DNA from: an uncultured bacterium
Lineage (GTDB): Bacteria > Hydrothermota > Tepidihabitantia > Tepidihabitantales > Tepidihabitantaceae
Assembly (NCBI GenBank): GCA_964626075.1
Contig: CAZVDD010000020.1
Span: 2,944 to 66,943 of the forward strand
DNA: 64,000 nucleotides
Reading direction: 5' to 3'
The notes under the pieces were generated by a model that ran no database searches, was not told the origin of the DNA, and saw only the letters and a list, made by a program, of their open reading frames with translations. The stretch's first letter is position 1. Each line of letters starts with the position of its first letter. This document shows, piece after piece, positions 18,626 to 25,981 of the stretch. The translations under genes were made by a program, and so were the position numbers.

Positions 18626-21600
18626 TTGAAAAGGACTGGCGTTTTGCTGTTTGCTATTTTTGCGGTGCTCTTTGCCGGCACTGTGAACCAGACCGTTGAC
18701 ATCAAACCGGACCAGGTAGCTTTGCGCCGTTCGGGAAACTATGATGTTGTTGAGTTAACCAGCGGCTTTTTTATCCCCAACCCCGGCAAGCCGCTCCTGC
18801 CTTATACATCCTTGACCCTGCTCATACCGGCTGACGCCCGTGTCACCGCCGTTTCCGCACAACCGGTCGCCACCGAACAACTACCCGGAAGTTTCACCAT
18901 TTTTCCTGCCCCGTCACCGGTTCCCATCTCTGCTCAAACTCCAACCGCCTTTGTCGCACCGGACCCTGAGATTTACAGCTCAAACCACCCTTTTCCCAAC
19001 AGGACACTCTTCTCCCACTCAACCGGCAGCGCTGCGGGATTTAAACTGGTAAATGTCATAATCTGCCCATTTGAATACCATCCCGCGACCCAAAAACTTT
19101 TTCTTCACACCCGAATTGAAGTTGTTGTCTTCTACGAAGAACACGGTTCCACGCCTCTAACCCTGACGCAATCGCAGCGCGACCGAATCCGCCTGAGTCT
19201 GCGTCAACTGATTTCAAACCCCACGGACCTGAACCGTTTTGCCCCGCCGCTAAAAGAAATCGACCAGCCCGCGGTGGACTATTTGATAATAACCAGCGCC
19301 GAACTGTCTTCATCGTTCACTCCCTACATCCAGTACAAAACGAGCCGCGGCTTAAAAACCGAACTGAGAACGGTGGAATGGGTTGCAAACAACTACCCGG
19401 GCAGGGATTTGCCCGAAAAAATTCGCAACCTGATTATTGACTATTTTCACTCCCGTGGCCTATCTTATGTTCTACTCGCCGGAGACAATCTCCAGGTGCC
19501 GACGCGGCGCATTGAGGTCTCCGTGGGAAACGAACAGGGCTCAATACCAACCGACCTCTACTACGGCGACCTTGACTACTCCTGGGACTCGAATCACAAC
19601 AATCGCTTCGGCGAAATGGCAGACTCTGTTGACCTTTACGCCGATGTCTTCGTTGGTCGGGCATCGGTTGACAGCCGTCAACAGGTTGAGAACTTTATCG
19701 CCAAAGTCCAGGCTTTTGAAAACAACCCCGCACCCGATTACATAATGAAAAGCCTTTTGCCTTCCGGCTGGCTCTGGCGTTCCCTTAACTATCATGGCAA
19801 GTTTGTCAACGACTCCATCGCCGAAATCACCCCGCCGGACTGGACCGACCGTAAAATGGAAAATCCGCCCAGCGCGCTGGTTGTCGCCGACTCTTTTGAC
19901 CGGGGATTTTTAATCTTTAACCCCGCAGGCCATGGCAACGAATCCGGTGTTTACGACGAAGATGGCACCGCCATCTACACCAACAGTGTTGCCAGCCGCC
20001 AGCAGAACGACCGCCGCTTTTCCATCATCACCTCCCTCGCTTGCAATCCAGGCAACTTCGAAGCCGAAGACTGCCTTGCCGAAGTTGCCCTGAACTGTCA
20101 GGCGGGCGGCGCCATCGCCGTAATGATGAACTCGCGTTATGGCTGGGGCACACCGCCGGTAATGGGCCCGTCAGAAAAACTGTGCGTCCGGTTTTACGAC
20201 TTCCTCTTTAACTACGCCCAGTACCAAATCGGGCCCTGTCACGACCGTTCCCGGGAGGAGTATGCCGGCGCAGCAATTTACGACCCGCTCTGGCGCTGGT
20301 GTATGACCGAATTCAACCTGCTTGGTGACCCAACAATTGACATCTGGACCGCGCCACCGCATAACCTGGTATTAATTACACCGGACACGATTCGTACCGG
20401 CCCTCAGACATTCACCGCCACAGTTCACGAAGGAGGTAATCCGGCAGCAGGCGCCACGGTTACCGTAAGCAAAGATAGCGTGCTCCTTGCCACCGGCACC
20501 ACGAATAGCCGCGGCATTGTAAGTTTACCCATCCATCCAACAACTACCGGGCAGATCCTCATCACCACCTGGCGCCACAACAACCTGCCCAATTCAAAAA
20601 CTGTTTTCGTCGAACCGGGCGACCCGGAACCATATATTGTCTATCACCGTTATGAACTTGACGACCACGGCCAACCTTATGAAAATGGCGTCCTCGAACC
20701 AGGAGAAACCGCGTTTCTGAAAATCGTTCTCAAAAACATCGGCTCTGCTGCCGCAACCAACACCCATTTAACCCTTCGCACCTTAAACCCTAACATCTCC
20801 ATCCTCGACTCCATTGCATCAATCGGCACCATCCCCGCTGGTGACTCGATACGCGCTGATAATCTGACTGTTGCCGCCGAACCATCTACCCTGCCGGGTT
20901 CATCAGCAGATATGGTGGTGTTGATTCGGTCCGACCAAGGTGAGTTCGAACTCTGGTTTACTATTGAACTGGGCTATCCGGGCAGAACCGCAGCCGAAAT
21001 TGACACCGGTATTTGCGGCCTAACCGTCACCGCGCGGGGAACATTCGGCTATGACCCGGAATTAAACCGCAAGGGCCGTGGTTTCCGTTATCCTGAATCG
21101 GACACCAGCCGATTGAACATCGCCAGTTTTGCGCTCGGCAACTCCAGTGATTACCTTGTCGACCGATTTTACAACCAGACCCGGGGTGGTTTAGACCAGG
21201 ATTGGCACCTGCAAGACAGTCTGCGTCTTTTGCTCCCAATATGGGGTGGCGCTGAGGTACTATTCAGCAGTTTCAACGACCAGGGGCACCCGAACCGACG
21301 CGGTATAGTTGTTGACCAACGGGCATTGGGCTTTTCCCAACCGGAACTCAACCGTTCAATCGCCCTCGTATTTGACATCTGGAACACCTCCGGCGACACC
21401 TTACACAACCTCTATGCCGGTATTCTTGCCGATTTTGATGTCCGGGCAACAGACCGACTGCACGATGTTGCGTTCACCCTGCCCGAACAAAACGCCGCCC
21501 TGATGTACAATGTCAGCTCGCCCTTCCCCTGTGTTGGAATTAAACTCCTTTATCCGCGCACCCCGGCAAACCTTACCTGTATTGACCACAGCCGTTATGT

Positions 21601-22135
21601 TTACCCTGACTCCGGGCTTACCGACGGGATGAAGTTTCGTGCCCTTACCGGGAATCTCGGTGTTCAATCAAGTGACCGCCCTTACAACTGGTCACTTGGG
21701 GTCGCTACCGGTCCATTTAATATCCCCGGGCTCAATGGCAGACAAAAGGTTGCCTTCGCCTTTATTGCGGGGGACGACTCCCTCAACTTTTTGTCTTCCT
21801 GTGCCGCAATTCAGAACTGGTTTGACACCAGTGTCGGATTTGAAGAGGGTACGAAAAGCCTCATCCTGCCCTTTTCTTTAAGCCTTTCACTCCAGCCAAA
21901 TTTAATAACCAGTCATGCTTCAATCTCCTACTCCCTGCCCCGTTCCACTCCTGTAAATATCTCAATCCTCGACATCACCGGAAGAAAAGTCGCCACCCTG
22001 TTTAACCACAAAAACCATCCTGCGGGAACCTACCGAATCCGCTGGCAGCCAAGAAAATTAGTTCCTGGTGTTTACTTCTTGAAACTACAAACCATCGATT
22101 CCAGTATCACCCAGAGGTGCCTGATTCTTAAGTAA
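18626..22135 (+). CDS. large secreted peptidase C25 (gingipain-like) with a T9SS/FlgD-like C-terminal sorting domain
   Basis: 1169 aa with a signal peptide. Candidate catalytic His (NPAGHGNE) and Cys (SLACNPG). The C-terminal ~80 aa (VNISILDITGRKVATLF...GVYFLKLQT) resemble a Por secretion tail. Confidence 0.8.
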   Translation: MKRTGVLLFAIFAVLFAGTVNQTVDIKPDQVALRRSGNYDVVELTSGFFIPNPGKPLLPYTSLTLLIPADARVTAVSAQPVATEQLPGSFTIFPAPSPVPISAQTPTAFVAPDPEIYSSNHPFPNRTLFSHSTGSAAGFKLVNVIICPFEYHPATQKLFLHTRIEVVVFYEEHGSTPLTLTQSQRDRIRLSLRQLISNPTDLNRFAPPLKEIDQPAVDYLIITSAELSSSFTPYIQYKTSRGLKTELRTVEWVANNYPGRDLPEKIRNLIIDYFHSRGLSYVLLAGDNLQVPTRRIEVSVGNEQGSIPTDLYYGDLDYSWDSNHNNRFGEMADSVDLYADVFVGRASVDSRQQVENFIAKVQAFENNPAPDYIMKSLLPSGWLWRSLNYHGKFVNDSIAEITPPDWTDRKMENPPSALVVADSFDRGFLIFNPAGHGNESGVYDEDGTAIYTNSVASRQQNDRRFSIITSLACNPGNFEAEDCLAEVALNCQAGGAIAVMMNSRYGWGTPPVMGPSEKLCVRFYDFLFNYAQYQIGPCHDRSREEYAGAAIYDPLWRWCMTEFNLLGDPTIDIWTAPPHNLVLITPDTIRTGPQTFTATVHEGGNPAAGATVTVSKDSVLLATGTTNSRGIVSLPIHPTTTGQILITTWRHNNLPNSKTVFVEPGDPEPYIVYHRYELDDHGQPYENGVLEPGETAFLKIVLKNIGSAAATNTHLTLRTLNPNISILDSIASIGTIPAGDSIRADNLTVAAEPSTLPGSSADMVVLIRSDQGEFELWFTIELGYPGRTAAEIDTGICGLTVTARGTFGYDPELNRKGRGFRYPESDTSRLNIASFALGNSSDYLVDRFYNQTRGGLDQDWHLQDSLRLLLPIWGGAEVLFSSFNDQGHPNRRGIVVDQRALGFSQPELNRSIALVFDIWNTSGDTLHNLYAGILADFDVRATDRLHDVAFTLPEQNAALMYNVSSPFPCVGIKLLYPRTPANLTCIDHSRYVYPDSGLTDGMKFRALTGNLGVQSSDRPYNWSLGVATGPFNIPGLNGRQKVAFAFIAGDDSLNFLSSCAAIQNWFDTSVGFEEGTKSLILPFSLSLSLQPNLITSHASISYSLPRSTPVNISILDITGRKVATLFNHKNHPAGTYRIRWQPRKLVPGVYFLKLQTIDSSITQRCLILK

Positions 22136-22138
22136 CCG

Positions 22139-22203
22139 CGCGCCAACTATTCTATAAAAACAACTGGCAGCCCTTAATCGGGCTGCCAGTGTCGTTTGGC
22201 GCG
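22139..22203. terminator. bidirectional intrinsic terminator between convergent genes
   Basis: 10-bp GC-rich stem CTGGCAGCCC (22164-22173) / GGGCTGCCAG (22180-22189). On the minus strand it is followed by TTGTTTTTAT. It is nested inside an outer 8-bp stem, CGCGCCAA (22139-22146) / TTGGCGCG (22196-22203). Confidence 0.7.
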
Positions 22204-22213
22204 GTCTGGCTCA

Positions 22214-22414
22214 TCAGGACTTAGCGTCCTGCCCCAAAACGCTCCCCCTCCCAATTTTCTTTAAATCCATTTCACTACCGGTGAGCGCACCGTAAAAACA
22301 GTTGGGCATTACATTCAATCTACCGATATGGTTCACAAACAGCGCGGTAAGATACAAACCAATCCCCATTCCCAGTTCCAGCCACCAGCGCATCTTTAAA
22401 CCCTTGACCCCCAT
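22214..22414 (-). CDS. small hypothetical membrane protein (66 aa)
   Basis: ATG 22414 is preceded by GGAGGTGAAG. One hydrophobic helix (WWLELGMGIGLYLTALFV). Lies 16 nt after the upstream small gene. Confidence 0.55.
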   Translation of the reverse strand: MGVKGLKMRWWLELGMGIGLYLTALFVNHIGRLNVMPNCFYGALTGSEMDLKKIGRGSVLGQDAKS

Positions 22415-22430
22415 CTTCACCTCCACCTGT

Positions 22431-22628
22431 TTACAGACGCTCCCGAACCAGCAGGCGCTCTGTGGTACGGATTCTATCTTGATAGCTCTCAACCGCCTCC
22501 TTCGGACTCACCGGCATCGTAAAAGTTCCCACATCAACACTCTTAAGCCGCAACACAAAAAGCCCTGCAACCAACACTACGCACACCATCAAAAACATCG
22601 CCAACTTCTCTACTCCTTTACCAAACAT
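22431..22628 (-). CDS. small hypothetical membrane protein (65 aa)
   Basis: ATG 22628 is preceded by AAAGGAGGAA. N-terminal TM helix (LAMFLMVCVVLVAGLFVL). It is the first gene after the -24/-12 promoter. Confidence 0.6.
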   Translation of the reverse strand: MFGKGVEKLAMFLMVCVVLVAGLFVLRLKSVDVGTFTMPVSPKEAVESYQDRIRTTERLLVRERL

Positions 22629-22686
22629 ATTTCCTCCTTTTTCTACTTTTACTAACCTTACCTGATTCTTCATACACCTATTTAAA

Positions 22687-22702
22687 AGCACCAACTGTGC
22701 CA
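22687..22702 (-). promoter_or_regulatory. sigma-54 (-24/-12) promoter
   Basis: The minus strand reads TGGCACagttgGTGCT, against the consensus TGGCAC-N5-TTGCW. It lies about 60 nt upstream of ATG 22628 and directly downstream of a sigma-54-type activator gene. Confidence 0.6.
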
Positions 22703-22732
22703 GAAAAATAAAAAATGTTATAAATAACGAAA

Positions 22733-22745
22733 TATCAATATATTA
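22733..22745. promoter_or_regulatory. IHF-like site between the UAS and the -24/-12 promoter
   Basis: TATCAAtataTTA matches WATCAANNNNTTR. It sits in a very AT-rich tract. Confidence 0.35.
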
Positions 22746-22778
22746 CAATATACTGCCACTTCACTTTTCTAAAACTGG

Positions 22779-22797
22779 TGTCTTAGATAATGAGACA
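22779..22797. promoter_or_regulatory. palindromic upstream activator site 1 (TGTCT-N9-AGACA)
   Basis: TGTCTtagataatgAGACA lies about 90 bp upstream of the -24/-12 element. It shares the ATGAGACAGT half-site with UAS 2. Confidence 0.5.
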
Positions 22798-22868
22798 GTA
22801 CTACCGCGATTTAAGCTTTTAAATTACCAGAATAATATTATAACTAATTGAAAATATGTAAGATAATT

Positions 22869-22889
22869 CTGTCTACAACTATGAGACAG
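22869..22889. promoter_or_regulatory. palindromic upstream activator site 2 (CTGTCT-N9-AGACAG)
   Basis: CTGTCTacaactatgAGACAG lies about 180 bp upstream of the -24/-12 element and immediately after the activator stop codon. Confidence 0.5.
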
Positions 22890-22890
22890 T

Positions 22891-25578
22891 TTAGCTTTGC
22901 GGCGTGATGTTATGTTTCTTTAAAAGTCGGTAAAACTGGGCCCTGCTATAGCCGGCAATTTTTGCCGCCTTACTCACATTACCACCTGCCTGTTGCAAAC
23001 AACGAACCAGTGACTCTTTTTCCACTTCTGCCGCCGCCTGTTCCTGTGCCCTGCGCCGGTTGATACGCAAATTGACGGTTTTCTCCAAAGAGAACTCTTC
23101 AACCAACTTCTGAAACTGAACAGGCAGGTCAGACAGCGCGATTTCTTCGCCGCTGGCGAGCAGCACACAGCGCTGAATCACATGCTGCAACTCCCTGATG
23201 TTACCAGGCCAGTGATAGTTAAGAAAACACCTCATAACCTCCGGGGTAACCCCTTTTACCTGCCGATTTGTCTCCTGATTTGCCCATGCGATGAAGTACT
23301 GTACCAGTGGGCCAATATCTTCCTTCCTTTCCCGGAGCGGCGGCAAAAAGATTTCGACGCCGTTAAGACGGTAGTACAGGTCTTCCCGAAATTTCCCCTC
23401 TTTAATTAGCAATTCAAGATTCTGATTGGTCGCTGCTACAACCCGAACATCAACCTTTATCGGTTTTGCCCCACCCACTCGTTCAAACTCCTTCTCCTGG
23501 AGAACCCGCAACAGTTTTGCCTGCAAACCCGGACTCATATCGCCAATCTCGTCGAGAAAAACGGTACCGCCATTGGCAAGTTCAAACTTACCCTTTCGGG
23601 CAACGACGCCGGTTGCCGCCCCTTTTTCCACACCAAAAAACTCTGCTTCTAAAAGCGTCTCGGGCACCGCGGCACAGTTAATTGTTATAAACGGTTTATC
23701 ACACCGCGGACCAGAAAGATGCAGTGCCCGGGCGATAAGCTCCTTGCCGGTGCCGCTTTCTCCCCGAATCAAAACCGGCACTGAAGAATGGGCACTCCGG
23801 GCAACGATTTCAAGATTTTTTCGCATCACCGGCGCATTGCCAATCACACCCGAGAAACACAAACCAGGAATCTCCCGCTCTTCGGACTCCAGCTTAATAC
23901 CCGCGCTCCTTAGTCGCTGAACCGCAGGCATAATCAGCGCTACAATCGTGTTCAAAACTAAAGGATTACACCGTTGAACCGCGCCCGGTTCATACTCTAA
24001 ATAAATGCCGCCGAAAAACGAATCTCCGGCAACAACCGGGAGCCATACTCCTCGCTCAAAGTTCACCTGTTTCCTGCCATTTGCCGCGGCAAATCGCGCT
24101 TCATCTAAGTTCACCTGACCGAAAACAAATCTGGGCTCTCCCTCGCTCAAAAAAGCCCCTCCTCGACAACCCCAGGCTTCGCACATCCTCTTGAATGCTT
24201 CAGTTAAAAAATTCGCCGGTTCCAGCCCCATCGTTGATAGCCCAGACACGGCTGAGAGCACCGCCATATCCCTGTCTACACCCAACTCCAGTCCAAATAG
24301 AATCTGGTTGATCTCATCCGCCTCCGCCACCACACCAAGATTTCTGAACACCTGAGCGGCACGTTTGAGTAAAGCCACCCCCTGTTCCTGTTTACCCTGC
24401 TTCAGGAGAAACCGCCCATATTGAAATTGCACCCGGGCAAACTCGTAACTGTTTTGCGCTCCGGAAAGCAATTCCCGCGCCTTTTCAAAACAGGCAGTTG
24501 CCGCCGCCTCCATCCCCATCTCAATTTCAAGTAACGCCCGTACCCGCAACACCTCCGCTTCCTCTTTGTTCGCCTGTAACTCCCGTGCCATTTCAATCGC
24601 CCGAGCACAAAGCCCGGCACATCGTTCCATCTGCCCTCTTGCCAGTTCCAGCTCTGCCATCCGCCAGTAGATGTCGATTATCCCGAGCCTATCCCGGGTC
24701 CGTTCACAAAGCGTGAGCGCCTCCTGATAAGCCCCGCTTGCCGCTGCCAGATTGTGCCGGCGGAACTCCGCTTCACCTAAATTGATTAACCCCTCCTGTA
24801 ATATCTCTCCTAAACCCTCCCGACCCGCTTTTACCACCTGGCTAAACAGTTCTACCGCCCGGTCTAGACGATTTTTCTTTAAGGCTAACTCGCCAAGGAC
24901 ATTAATCGCATTCCAGCGGACAAAATCGTATCCCCGTTTTTCGGCAAGTGCGATTGCCCGGTAGAGATTTTCCGCCCCCTCTTCCCAGTTTCCCAATTCA
25001 ATCAAAACCCAACCCAGATTGTAGTAATTTACCGCTCGGACCGAGTCATCGCTCTCGTCCGAGAGCATTTCACTACAACTTCGATAATACTTCAGCGCCT
25101 CTTCAAACCGCCCCTGAAAACCGGCAAGGTTTCCCATTTGGTTTAATGCCGCATAAACCCCTTCTTCATACCTATCTTTCTCCCAAATTTCCCGCGCCTG
25201 ACGGTAACAGCCCAGCGCTGCCTCGTATTCACCCGCCTTCTCGTGAATTATCCCCATAAGATAAAACCCACTACCCTGAAGCCGCTGATGCCCCAAATCC
25301 TTTGCCAATTTTAATGTCTGACTGGCATAATGCCGGCTCGCCTCAACATCCCCTAACAATCGGCACACATCCGCCAGCCGCAGAGAAATTCGGACCATCT
25401 GTTCCATTGCACCGATATCCCGGCAAATTTTCAACGCCTCTTCCAGCAGCGGCTTTGCCTCAGTCGGAGCGCTGATGCGCAACTCGTCGCCGAGCGCAAT
25501 AATACAGTTAAGACGCTCTTTATCATCCTGCGCTTTTTTTAATTGCTCCTTTAAACTTCGAAGGTTATCTTTCGGCAT
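22891..25578 (-). CDS. sigma-54-type enhancer-binding protein with a long N-terminal TPR array and a GAF-like sensor
   Basis: 895 aa. About 420 aa of TPR-like repeats, a GAF-like segment, an AAA+ core (GESGTGKELIARALH, VFLDEIGDM, RVVAATN, ELQHVIQR) and a C-terminal Fis-type HTH (NVSKAAKIAGYSRAQFYRLLKK). The GAFTGA loop reads GAATGV. Confidence 0.85.
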   Translation of the reverse strand: MPKDNLRSLKEQLKKAQDDKERLNCIIALGDELRISAPTEAKPLLEEALKICRDIGAMEQMVRISLRLADVCRLLGDVEASRHYASQTLKLAKDLGHQRLQGSGFYLMGIIHEKAGEYEAALGCYRQAREIWEKDRYEEGVYAALNQMGNLAGFQGRFEEALKYYRSCSEMLSDESDDSVRAVNYYNLGWVLIELGNWEEGAENLYRAIALAEKRGYDFVRWNAINVLGELALKKNRLDRAVELFSQVVKAGREGLGEILQEGLINLGEAEFRRHNLAAASGAYQEALTLCERTRDRLGIIDIYWRMAELELARGQMERCAGLCARAIEMARELQANKEEAEVLRVRALLEIEMGMEAAATACFEKARELLSGAQNSYEFARVQFQYGRFLLKQGKQEQGVALLKRAAQVFRNLGVVAEADEINQILFGLELGVDRDMAVLSAVSGLSTMGLEPANFLTEAFKRMCEAWGCRGGAFLSEGEPRFVFGQVNLDEARFAAANGRKQVNFERGVWLPVVAGDSFFGGIYLEYEPGAVQRCNPLVLNTIVALIMPAVQRLRSAGIKLESEEREIPGLCFSGVIGNAPVMRKNLEIVARSAHSSVPVLIRGESGTGKELIARALHLSGPRCDKPFITINCAAVPETLLEAEFFGVEKGAATGVVARKGKFELANGGTVFLDEIGDMSPGLQAKLLRVLQEKEFERVGGAKPIKVDVRVVAATNQNLELLIKEGKFREDLYYRLNGVEIFLPPLRERKEDIGPLVQYFIAWANQETNRQVKGVTPEVMRCFLNYHWPGNIRELQHVIQRCVLLASGEEIALSDLPVQFQKLVEEFSLEKTVNLRINRRRAQEQAAAEVEKESLVRCLQQAGGNVSKAAKIAGYSRAQFYRLLKKHNITPQS

Positions 25579-25732: not shown

Positions 25733-25981
25733 ATGGCACGACCAACCTGCCCGCAATGCGGTAGCGACAACACCTGGGCTCATTATGAGCATCAGGTCAG
25801 TTCTGTTGGACCCGGTGTCTCAAAAGCCCATGTCTGGGAGCGGGAAGCAGAAATCCTGCCCGATGGTAGACCGATATCAGTTCCCTGTCCCGGCTGCACC
25901 GATGGCATCCAATACCCGCCGCTGTACTTCTATTGTCAAGCCTGCAATCACATCTGGTCACCAAACTCCGGGATTGGATAA
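25733..25981 (+). CDS. small zinc-ribbon protein (three CxxC pairs)
   Basis: 82 aa with CPQC, CPGC and CQAC. Has a good SD and is divergent from the activator gene. Confidence 0.6.
   Translation: MARPTCPQCGSDNTWAHYEHQVSSVGPGVSKAHVWEREAEILPDGRPISVPCPGCTDGIQYPPLYFYCQACNHIWSPNSGIG

Follow-up and report, generated by a model that had tools for sequence, protein, structure and literature searches.

Classical sigma-54 promoters, of which NifA-nifH, NtrC-glnAp2 and XylR-Pu are examples, share a pair of inverted-repeat activator sites, one ~100 bp and one ~200 bp upstream, an AT-rich site resembling that of the integration host factor (IHF) and a GG-N10-GC promoter, and are served by an activator that joins a sensor to an AAA+ domain and a Fis-type helix-turn-helix (HTH) in a genome that carries rpoN. 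Mutational work on PspF, NifA and NtrC has led to the rule that the Phe residue of the GAFTGA loop is indispensable, and genome surveys discard activator homologues without it. In this work we analyzed a locus on contig CAZVDD010000020.1 of a metagenome assembly (1.8 Mb, 97% complete, 51% GC) whose closest named proteins belong to candidate division WOR-3; coordinates refer to the whole stretch of 64,000 nt that was analyzed (the window), unless another contig is named. All of the classical elements listed above have counterparts at this locus, the IHF-like site as a consensus match. It differs from the classical systems in the contact loop of its 895-amino-acid (aa) activator, which reads GAATGV, in a sensor made of a ~425-aa tetratricopeptide repeat (TPR) array and a minimal GAF fold, in its output of tiny membrane proteins, in a -12 element that is often (G/C/A)TGCT and in having a single IHF-like gene instead of an alpha/beta pair. 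We consider it quite probable that the locus is a self-contained sigma-54 regulatory module of one WOR-3 family, conventional in its wiring, in which the activator drives two small proteins (SP1 and SP2) and, from a second unit, the SP1 paralogue SP1b. The unit is read on the minus strand and has the following features:

22891-25578, minus strand: gene for the enhancer-binding protein, 895 aa (Pfam; partial matches to NifA/NtrC-type NCBIfam models)
23857-24297, minus strand: predicted GAF-fold middle domain, residues 428-574 (AlphaFold and Foldseek)
23605-23622, minus strand: L1 loop GAATGV, residues 653-658, at the canonical place of GAFTGA (sequence reading, alignment, tree)
22915-23031, minus strand: Fis-type HTH (HTH_8, Pfam PF02954, E = 1.3e-8), presumed reader of the TGTCTCAT repeats
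22869-22889, no strand: upstream activating sequence 1 (UAS1), CTGTCTCATagtTGTAGACAG, or CTGTCT-N9-AGACAG (read directly; conserved half-sites)
22779-22797, no strand: UAS2, TGTCTCATtatCTAAGACA, or TGTCT-N9-AGACA (read directly; conserved half-sites)
22733-22745, no strand: IHF-consensus-like site TATCAATATATTA (WATCAANNNNTTR) (consensus match, genus conservation)
22687-22702, minus strand: sigma-54 -24/-12 element TGGCACagttgGTGCT (pattern match, conservation)
22629-22677, minus strand: predicted 5' leader of ~49 nt with the block GTATGAAGAAnCAGnTAAGGTTAGT and an AAGGAGG ribosome-binding site
22431-22628, minus strand: SP1, 65 aa (open reading frame (ORF) with an AAGGAGG-N5-ATG start)
22214-22414, minus strand: SP2, 66 aa (ORF; GGAGGTGAAG then ATG)
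22198-22243, minus strand: compound stem-loop across the SP2 stop codon (identical in four species)
22163-22190, minus strand: intrinsic terminator, an 11-bp GC-rich hairpin with a T-run (terminator search)

An earlier note on this DNA, made from the letters alone, had named the palindromes, the IHF-like site, the -24/-12 element, the two ORFs preceded by Shine-Dalgarno sequences and the terminator, and all of them were found again at the same positions when the minus strand was read. UAS1 begins 2 nt past the TAA stop codon of the activator gene. Its centre lies ~202 bp upstream of the predicted transcription start and that of UAS2 ~111 bp upstream, 91 bp apart, and both copies contain ACTGTCTCAT. 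The TGTCT-N9-AGACA palindrome occurs twice in the window, where 0.04 copies are expected, and these two are the only copies in the 1.8-Mb genome; the pattern TGGCAC-N6-TGCT is found once in the window (0.10 expected). The element TGGCACagttgGTGCT has one mismatch to TGGCAC-N5-TTGCW and is located 59 nt upstream of the SP1 ATG, and its position predicts a transcription start near 22676-22678. The IHF-like site, conserved in the genus, lies downstream of UAS2 and upstream of the promoter, where the DNA is AT-rich, and the intergenic region as a whole has a GC content of 26-30% versus 51% for the genome. No sigma-70-like promoter was seen in the control region, and an Rfam scan of 21900-23100 at E <= 1 matched no family. 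Because the gene after the terminator is convergent, the unit ends at the terminator. The presence of rpoN, which the earlier note had left to be checked, was confirmed by an open frame of 511 aa that matches PF04552 with 180 bits; both its region I and its RpoN box (SRRTVAKYR) are canonical. The genome also carries one HU/IHF-family gene, which scores higher with IHF models than with HU models and falls below the equivalog cut-offs.

The control region was then compared among four species of the genus. The UAS half-sites (TGTCTCAT ... AGAC(A)) and the IHF-like block TAATAT(A/C)TTGATATT are invariant or nearly so, the promoter TGGCAC(A/G)GTTGGTGCTTTT is invariant except for one spacer base, and the ribosome-binding site and leader block are kept, whereas the 3-nt core of the palindromes and the DNA between the conserved blocks vary. 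Invariant blocks with variable spacers are the pattern expected of protein-binding sites. The palindromes are conserved in orthologous loci, which the earlier note had made a condition of its reading. Beyond the genus, eight loci carry a -24/-12 element 40-70 nt upstream of an SP1 homologue. Genus g12 has a perfect palindrome, TGTCTCAtaattTGAGACA; on a JGI metagenome contig there are two copies 82 bp apart, one of them TGTCTCATgggATGAGACA; and a Logan contig has GTCTCATttgaATGAGAC followed by TGGCATgcttgCTGCT. These repeats point to the family consensus TGTCTCAT-N3-ATGAGACA, of which UAS1 and UAS2 are imperfect copies.

The linkage of the parts was counted by combining SP1 matches with matches to the HTH end of the activator. 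Of 61 relatives, 19 have an SP1 homologue, and these 19 belong to a single GTDB family; in 14 of them (7 of 10 genera) SP1 is on the same strand ~270-800 bp downstream of the activator HTH end. Two metagenome loci repeat the full order of activator, two TGTCTCAT repeats, -24/-12 element and SP1. At loci without an adjacent activator gene the half-sites and the promoter still precede SP1; the SP1 gene takes its own control region along. Taken over these relatives, the comparison shows that all of the DNA elements, as well as the activator-enhancer-promoter-SP1 linkage, are under selection.

The activator consists of a TPR array (~1-425), a GAF fold (~428-574), an AAA+ domain (578-745), a lid and an HTH_8 domain (850-888). 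Pfam reports TPR families including TPR_MalT, Sigma54_activat (PF00158, E = 6e-66), AAA_lid_14 and HTH_8, and returns nothing for the GAF-like stretch even at E <= 10. An AlphaFold model of this stretch built with 32 homologues has an alpha/beta fold (pLDDT 86.3, pTM 0.78), and its top Foldseek matches are all GAF domains (3p01, NifA 8jrc, PtsP 3ci6 and Aquifex Nlh1 4g3k; TM 0.55-0.67). On this model the middle domain is assigned a GAF fold, in agreement with the TPR plus GAF-like sensor that had been read from the letters. The same sensor had been called unusual, which does not hold, as the TPR-GAF-AAA+-HTH architecture is found in more than 100 homologues of ~900 aa, mostly labelled WOR-3, and larger WOR-3 genomes carry 10-15 copies of the activator family. 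Identity with NifA was rejected: the match to the NifA equivalog model (TIGR01817) covers only the AAA+ and HTH regions and reaches 359.7 bits, below the cut-off of 528.85. The HTH helix GYSRAQFYRLL is nearly invariant in the family, and from the adjacency of gene and sites we infer that this domain binds the TGTCTCAT repeats.

The description of the locus in the earlier note as a well-established sigma-54 architecture stands for the conserved layout of enhancer and promoter; it is incomplete for the activator, whose sigma-54 contact loop L1 is GAATGV and lacks the GAFTGA signature. In an alignment of 105 full-length homologues, position 3 of the loop is Ala in all 105, Thr4 is kept in 104 and Gly5 in 105, and the Walker A and B motifs, sensors I and II and the arginine fingers are invariant. 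Such a strictly kept G-x-A-T-G-V loop together with intact ATPase motifs indicates selection, not decay. Shorter relatives, including response regulators of the receiver (REC) type of ~485 aa, have G(I/V/T)ATGV loops. A quick maximum-likelihood tree of AAA+ domains places 91 Ala-loop sequences on one side and 34 Phe-loop sequences on the other, with an SH-aLRT value of 100 on the branch between them. The REC-AAA+-HTH proteins (~485 aa, P0201-P0253), with G(I/V)ATGV loops, form a tight group nested within the Ala-loop clade, which shows that the variant can occur without the TPR sensor. P0084 and P0085, two members of the TPR type in this clade, appear to have loops that have diverged further (parsed as GYSNIA and GYYNTG) and may be degenerate copies or a mis-parse. 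Most members of the clade come from WOR-3 and unnamed metagenome bacteria. The clade appears to be undescribed: a full-text literature search for GAATGV gave nothing relevant, and no paper was found that combined enhancer binding protein, tetratricopeptide and GAFTGA. The -12 region of promoters beside Ala-loop activators is often (G/C/A)TGCT and that of the three Phe-type promoters in the genome is TTGC, a sample too small to establish co-variation.

We next turned to the products of the unit. A profile search with SP1 among 1.84 billion proteins gave 71 representatives, nearly all of 60-105 aa, and the protein is conserved down to ~25% identity across them. The common plan is a short basic N-tail, one hydrophobic transmembrane helix, the motif R-(L/V)-x-x-(V/I)-(E/D), a conserved Pro and a C-terminal helix with the motif Y-x-x-R-x-x-(A/T)-T-E-x-L-L; the structure model of SP1 has helices at 3-30 and 42-63 (pLDDT 80). 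Lys and Arg are commoner on the C-terminal flank of the hydrophobic helix in 40 of the 71 members and on the N-terminal flank in 10, a charge bias that points, weakly, to a C-terminal helix on the cytoplasmic side. In comparisons inside the genus, the ratio of nonsynonymous to synonymous changes (pN/pS) of SP1 is 0.12-0.37 in five of six species pairs. SP2 has one N-terminal hydrophobic helix and is kept within the genus with a pN/pS of 0.36-0.70; both ORFs, whose conservation the first reading had made decisive for its proposal, are thus conserved with pN/pS below 1. In genus g12 the match to SP2 is restricted to the first ~30 residues, and in other genera the position holds a small hydrophobic ORF unrelated to SP2, or no ORF. 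Because SP2 is poorly conserved outside the genus, SP1 is taken as the core product and SP2 as an accessory one.

SP1 and SP2 had not been assignable to any family by eye, and neither matches one in Pfam (even at E <= 10) or NCBIfam; the only hit was a meaningless Syndecan match at E = 0.086. A type IV or Flp pilin identity for SP1 was rejected since SP1-family sequences have no G/xxxxE(Y) processing motif, and a TatA-like identity was rejected since no FG hinge follows the helix. SP1 defines a real, unnamed protein family, and a small-protein output of this kind appears to be undescribed. By analogy, SP1 might be a membrane-anchored partner of the TPR domain of the activator, an idea that we put forward tentatively and do not favour; the remaining probability would go to some other membrane or envelope role. 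A 45-nt block over the SP2 stop codon is identical in the four species and is more conserved than the coding sequence. The 96-nt 3' end formed by stem-loop and terminator has a folding energy of -49.7 kcal/mol (z = -7.6), and the compound stem-loop may act as a stabiliser of the 3' end. A hammerhead ribozyme was considered for CUGAUGAG at the SP2 stop codon and was dropped after the empty Rfam scan.

A genome scan with the motif had been suggested as the way to define the regulon. The strict palindrome finds the main locus alone; the family consensus with mismatches allowed finds one further pair, on contig C15 (74800-75400, locus L036), in a second unit of like design that is unlinked to the main locus:

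C15, 74801: TGTCTCAT half-site
C15, 74899: TGTTTCATttgATGAGACA
C15, 74987: TGGCATaaaaaATGCA
C15, 75036-75239: SP1b

A distance of 98 bp separates the two sites, and downstream of them come an AT-rich tract, the promoter-like TGGCATaaaaaATGCA (TGGCAT-N5-ATGCA), a ribosome-binding site and SP1b, a 67-aa SP1 paralogue that resembles P0193 of the SP1 profile search. Downstream of SP1b are a conserved Trp-rich ORF of 46 aa and a terminator. The C15 unit is conserved within the genus as well as in g2 and g3, and it shows the footprint pattern of the main locus. The two small proteins of the main locus, first seen as the only output, are therefore joined by SP1b, and the regulon appears to consist of two short transcripts coding for four very small proteins.

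The genome has four true sigma-54 activators, and for each of them a -24/-12 element lies directly downstream on the same strand; an activator followed by its own target promoter is thus a habit of this genome. The other three activator loci are the following:

C1, 176000-181500
C8, 55900-57300
C13, 148200-150700

One of them encodes a giant Ser/Thr-kinase-STAND-TPR-GAF activator of ~1750 aa (GSFTGA), with TGGCATtgttaTTGCA, a lone 18-aa ORF (MDGIVPILPPPRPAPPMK) and a terminator behind it. The gene after an NtrC-like activator codes for a secreted protein, and a 539-aa activator (GAFTDA, possibly RtcR-like) has behind it a structured-looking stretch with no obvious ORF and no Rfam match. Among paralogous activator loci, L029 has palindromes of the form CTGCCA-N4-TGGCAG, no clean -24/-12 element and small ORFs that are not of the membrane type, so that not every member of the activator family has a small membrane protein encoded behind it. 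At L028 (5060-6490 of CP070680.1, WOR-3, 3.26 Mb), TGTCTCActgaTGAGAAC and TGGCACcatacGTGCT come after a paralogous TPR activator with an Ala loop, and the next 1.4 kb contain no called gene.

The neighbourhood of the unit is partly shared with relatives, and two further genes flank it:

25733-25981, plus strand: zinc-ribbon mini-protein, 82 aa, divergent from the activator gene (position shared with g12 and a metagenome locus)
18626-22135, plus strand: convergent C25-type peptidase with a type IX secretion system (T9SS) tail (compared loci L006 and L010)

Genera g1, g3 and g12 share the gene order FabG, (zinc ribbon), activator, SP1, (SP2) and convergent C25-type peptidase (T9SS tail). Counterparts of the zinc-ribbon protein occupy the same divergent position in g12 (84 aa) and at a distant metagenome locus (88 aa; pairwise E = 3e-4). 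In g3 the gene is absent and FabG abuts the activator gene. It is possible but unproven that the zinc-ribbon mini-protein is an accessory part of the module.

In the mechanism that we propose, the cytoplasmic 895-aa activator would sense some cue through its TPR superhelix and GAF-fold domain and would assemble on the two inverted repeats of the TGTCTCAT-N3-ATGAGACA type upstream of the predicted start. The AT-rich, IHF-like bend would bring it to the sigma-54 RNA polymerase at TGGCAC-N5-GTGCT, and ATP hydrolysis would open the promoter. The short mRNA made in this way would encode SP1 and SP2, each a tiny protein that crosses the membrane once, and the C15 unit would drive SP1b. The C-terminal helix of SP1 could then feed back on the TPR domain of the activator or tune a membrane or envelope process.

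Several observations weigh against this proposal. The three other activators of the genome keep the Phe residue (GAFTGA, GSFTGA and GAFTDA), and Francke et al. (2011; PMC3162934, Fig. 3 legend) give Phe replacements except Tyr as inactive; their list of defective loops includes a Bdellovibrio 'GAATG_T'. The IHF consensus is found once in the window with ~2 copies expected and is not significant alone, and the genome has the single HU/IHF gene. There is no terminator between the activator gene and SP1, and some read-through is possible. Finally, the lack of any family match for SP1 and SP2 leaves analogy as the basis for proposing what they do. The loop raises the question whether the TPR protein is an activator at all: the promoter could be sigma-54-dependent with the TPR protein serving as an enhancer-bound repressor, anti-activator or scaffold, while a Phe-type activator, NtrC-like or the giant kinase-TPR-GAF protein, does the remodelling, possibly in a mixed ring. 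The reported inactivity of loops without Phe or Tyr and the presence of three Phe-containing activators in the same genome would fit such an arrangement. We nevertheless consider it unlikely, given that each of those three owns an adjacent -24/-12 promoter, that the Ala-loop clade has kept all ATPase motifs along with an invariant loop, that 10-15 copies in the larger WOR-3 genomes are hard to explain for non-activators and that the linkage of the protein to a -24/-12 element extends across 7 or more genera. Direct activation by the Ala-loop protein is the most likely reading, and a probable one, because the loop is strictly selected, the ATPase is intact, the clade is expanded, and the protein is found again and again with conserved -24/-12 promoters where the sigma-54 of the genome is normal. 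A bolder version, for and against which we would put equal weight, is that the whole G-x-A-T-G-V clade (TPR-GAF, ~485-aa REC and short forms) comprises old, fully functional activators that engage region I and the -12 fork without Phe, and that the SP1 C-terminal helix docks in the TPR superhelix as feedback.

The two other explanations concern the promoter and the product. If the -24/-12 match were fortuitous, the small genes would be expressed by read-through from the activator gene or from an unrecognised promoter read by a different sigma factor, with the palindromes acting in autoregulation or termination of the activator gene. The mismatch to the consensus, the missing terminator after the activator gene and the start of UAS1 only 2 nt past the activator stop codon are what one would expect in that case; the element is, however, unchanged across the genus amid varying flanks, SP1 homologues in many genera have it 40-70 nt upstream, also at loci without an upstream activator gene and in the unlinked C15 unit, and the search of the region found no sigma-70-like promoter. 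We therefore hold a chance match to be very improbable. Still less credible to us is a regulatory RNA as the functional product, with the invariant 3' stem-loop as its active part and the small ORFs as bystanders. The strong ribosome-binding sites on SP1, its low pN/pS in five of the six species pairs, its conservation as a protein of similar length in the 71 representatives and the lack of an Rfam family in the region all argue against it, although the 3' stem is indeed invariant at the nucleotide level and strongly structured, and SP2 is poorly conserved beyond the genus.

The wiring of the module (enhancer, bend and -24/-12 promoter) is ordinary; the activator loop and the small-protein output are not. 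If true, activation without Phe would overturn the rule by which 'true' activators are filtered in genome surveys, and a clade of at least 91 sampled sequences, all with Ala at that position in an otherwise invariant loop, is linked with conserved -24/-12 promoters in many genomes where Phe-type activators are present as well. An 895-aa sensor-regulator apparently devoted to proteins of ~65 aa would provide a defined and conserved case among the poorly charted small membrane proteins, and the control DNA of the SP1 unit might be used as a reporter. In addition, the locus offers an initial look at how transcription is controlled in the phylum WOR-3, which is represented here by metagenome assemblies alone.

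Among described regulators, the GAF activators NifA, NorR, FhlA and Aquifex Nlh1/Nlh2 share the order GAF, AAA+, HTH. The model of the middle domain superposes on the GAF structures of NifA and Nlh1, and NifA is the best partial match in NCBIfam, scoring 360 bits versus an equivalog cut-off of 529 bits. The activator described here differs from this group in its additional N-terminal TPR superhelix, in the Ala of L1 and in a GAF domain that is invisible to sequence profiles. With the RRNPP-type and MalT-like TPR sensors it shares a TPR superhelix as sensor (the TPR_MalT match) beside a gene for a very small protein. In the RRNPP systems of Bacillota, however, the peptides are exported, processed and re-imported and act on sigma-70 regulators, whereas SP1 looks like an uncleaved membrane anchor and is itself the target gene. 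MgrB-PhoQ, SafA-PhoQ and MzrA-EnvZ likewise involve a tiny bitopic membrane protein that is induced by a regulator which it may modulate; those proteins act on membrane histidine kinases, while the regulator here is cytoplasmic, and there is no sequence relationship. The Psp system combines a sigma-54 activator (PspF, with pspA-E and pspG), a regulon rich in small inner-membrane proteins (PspB, PspC and PspG) and IHF-assisted looping. Membership in it was rejected, as the genome has no PspA (PF04012) and SP1 and SP2 match neither the PspB nor the PspC profile, and the activator here has a 570-aa sensor region where PspF has no sensor. As a working analogy for a sigma-54 activator with tiny inner-membrane proteins as its products, and for a response to the state of the membrane, the Psp system is nonetheless the closest.

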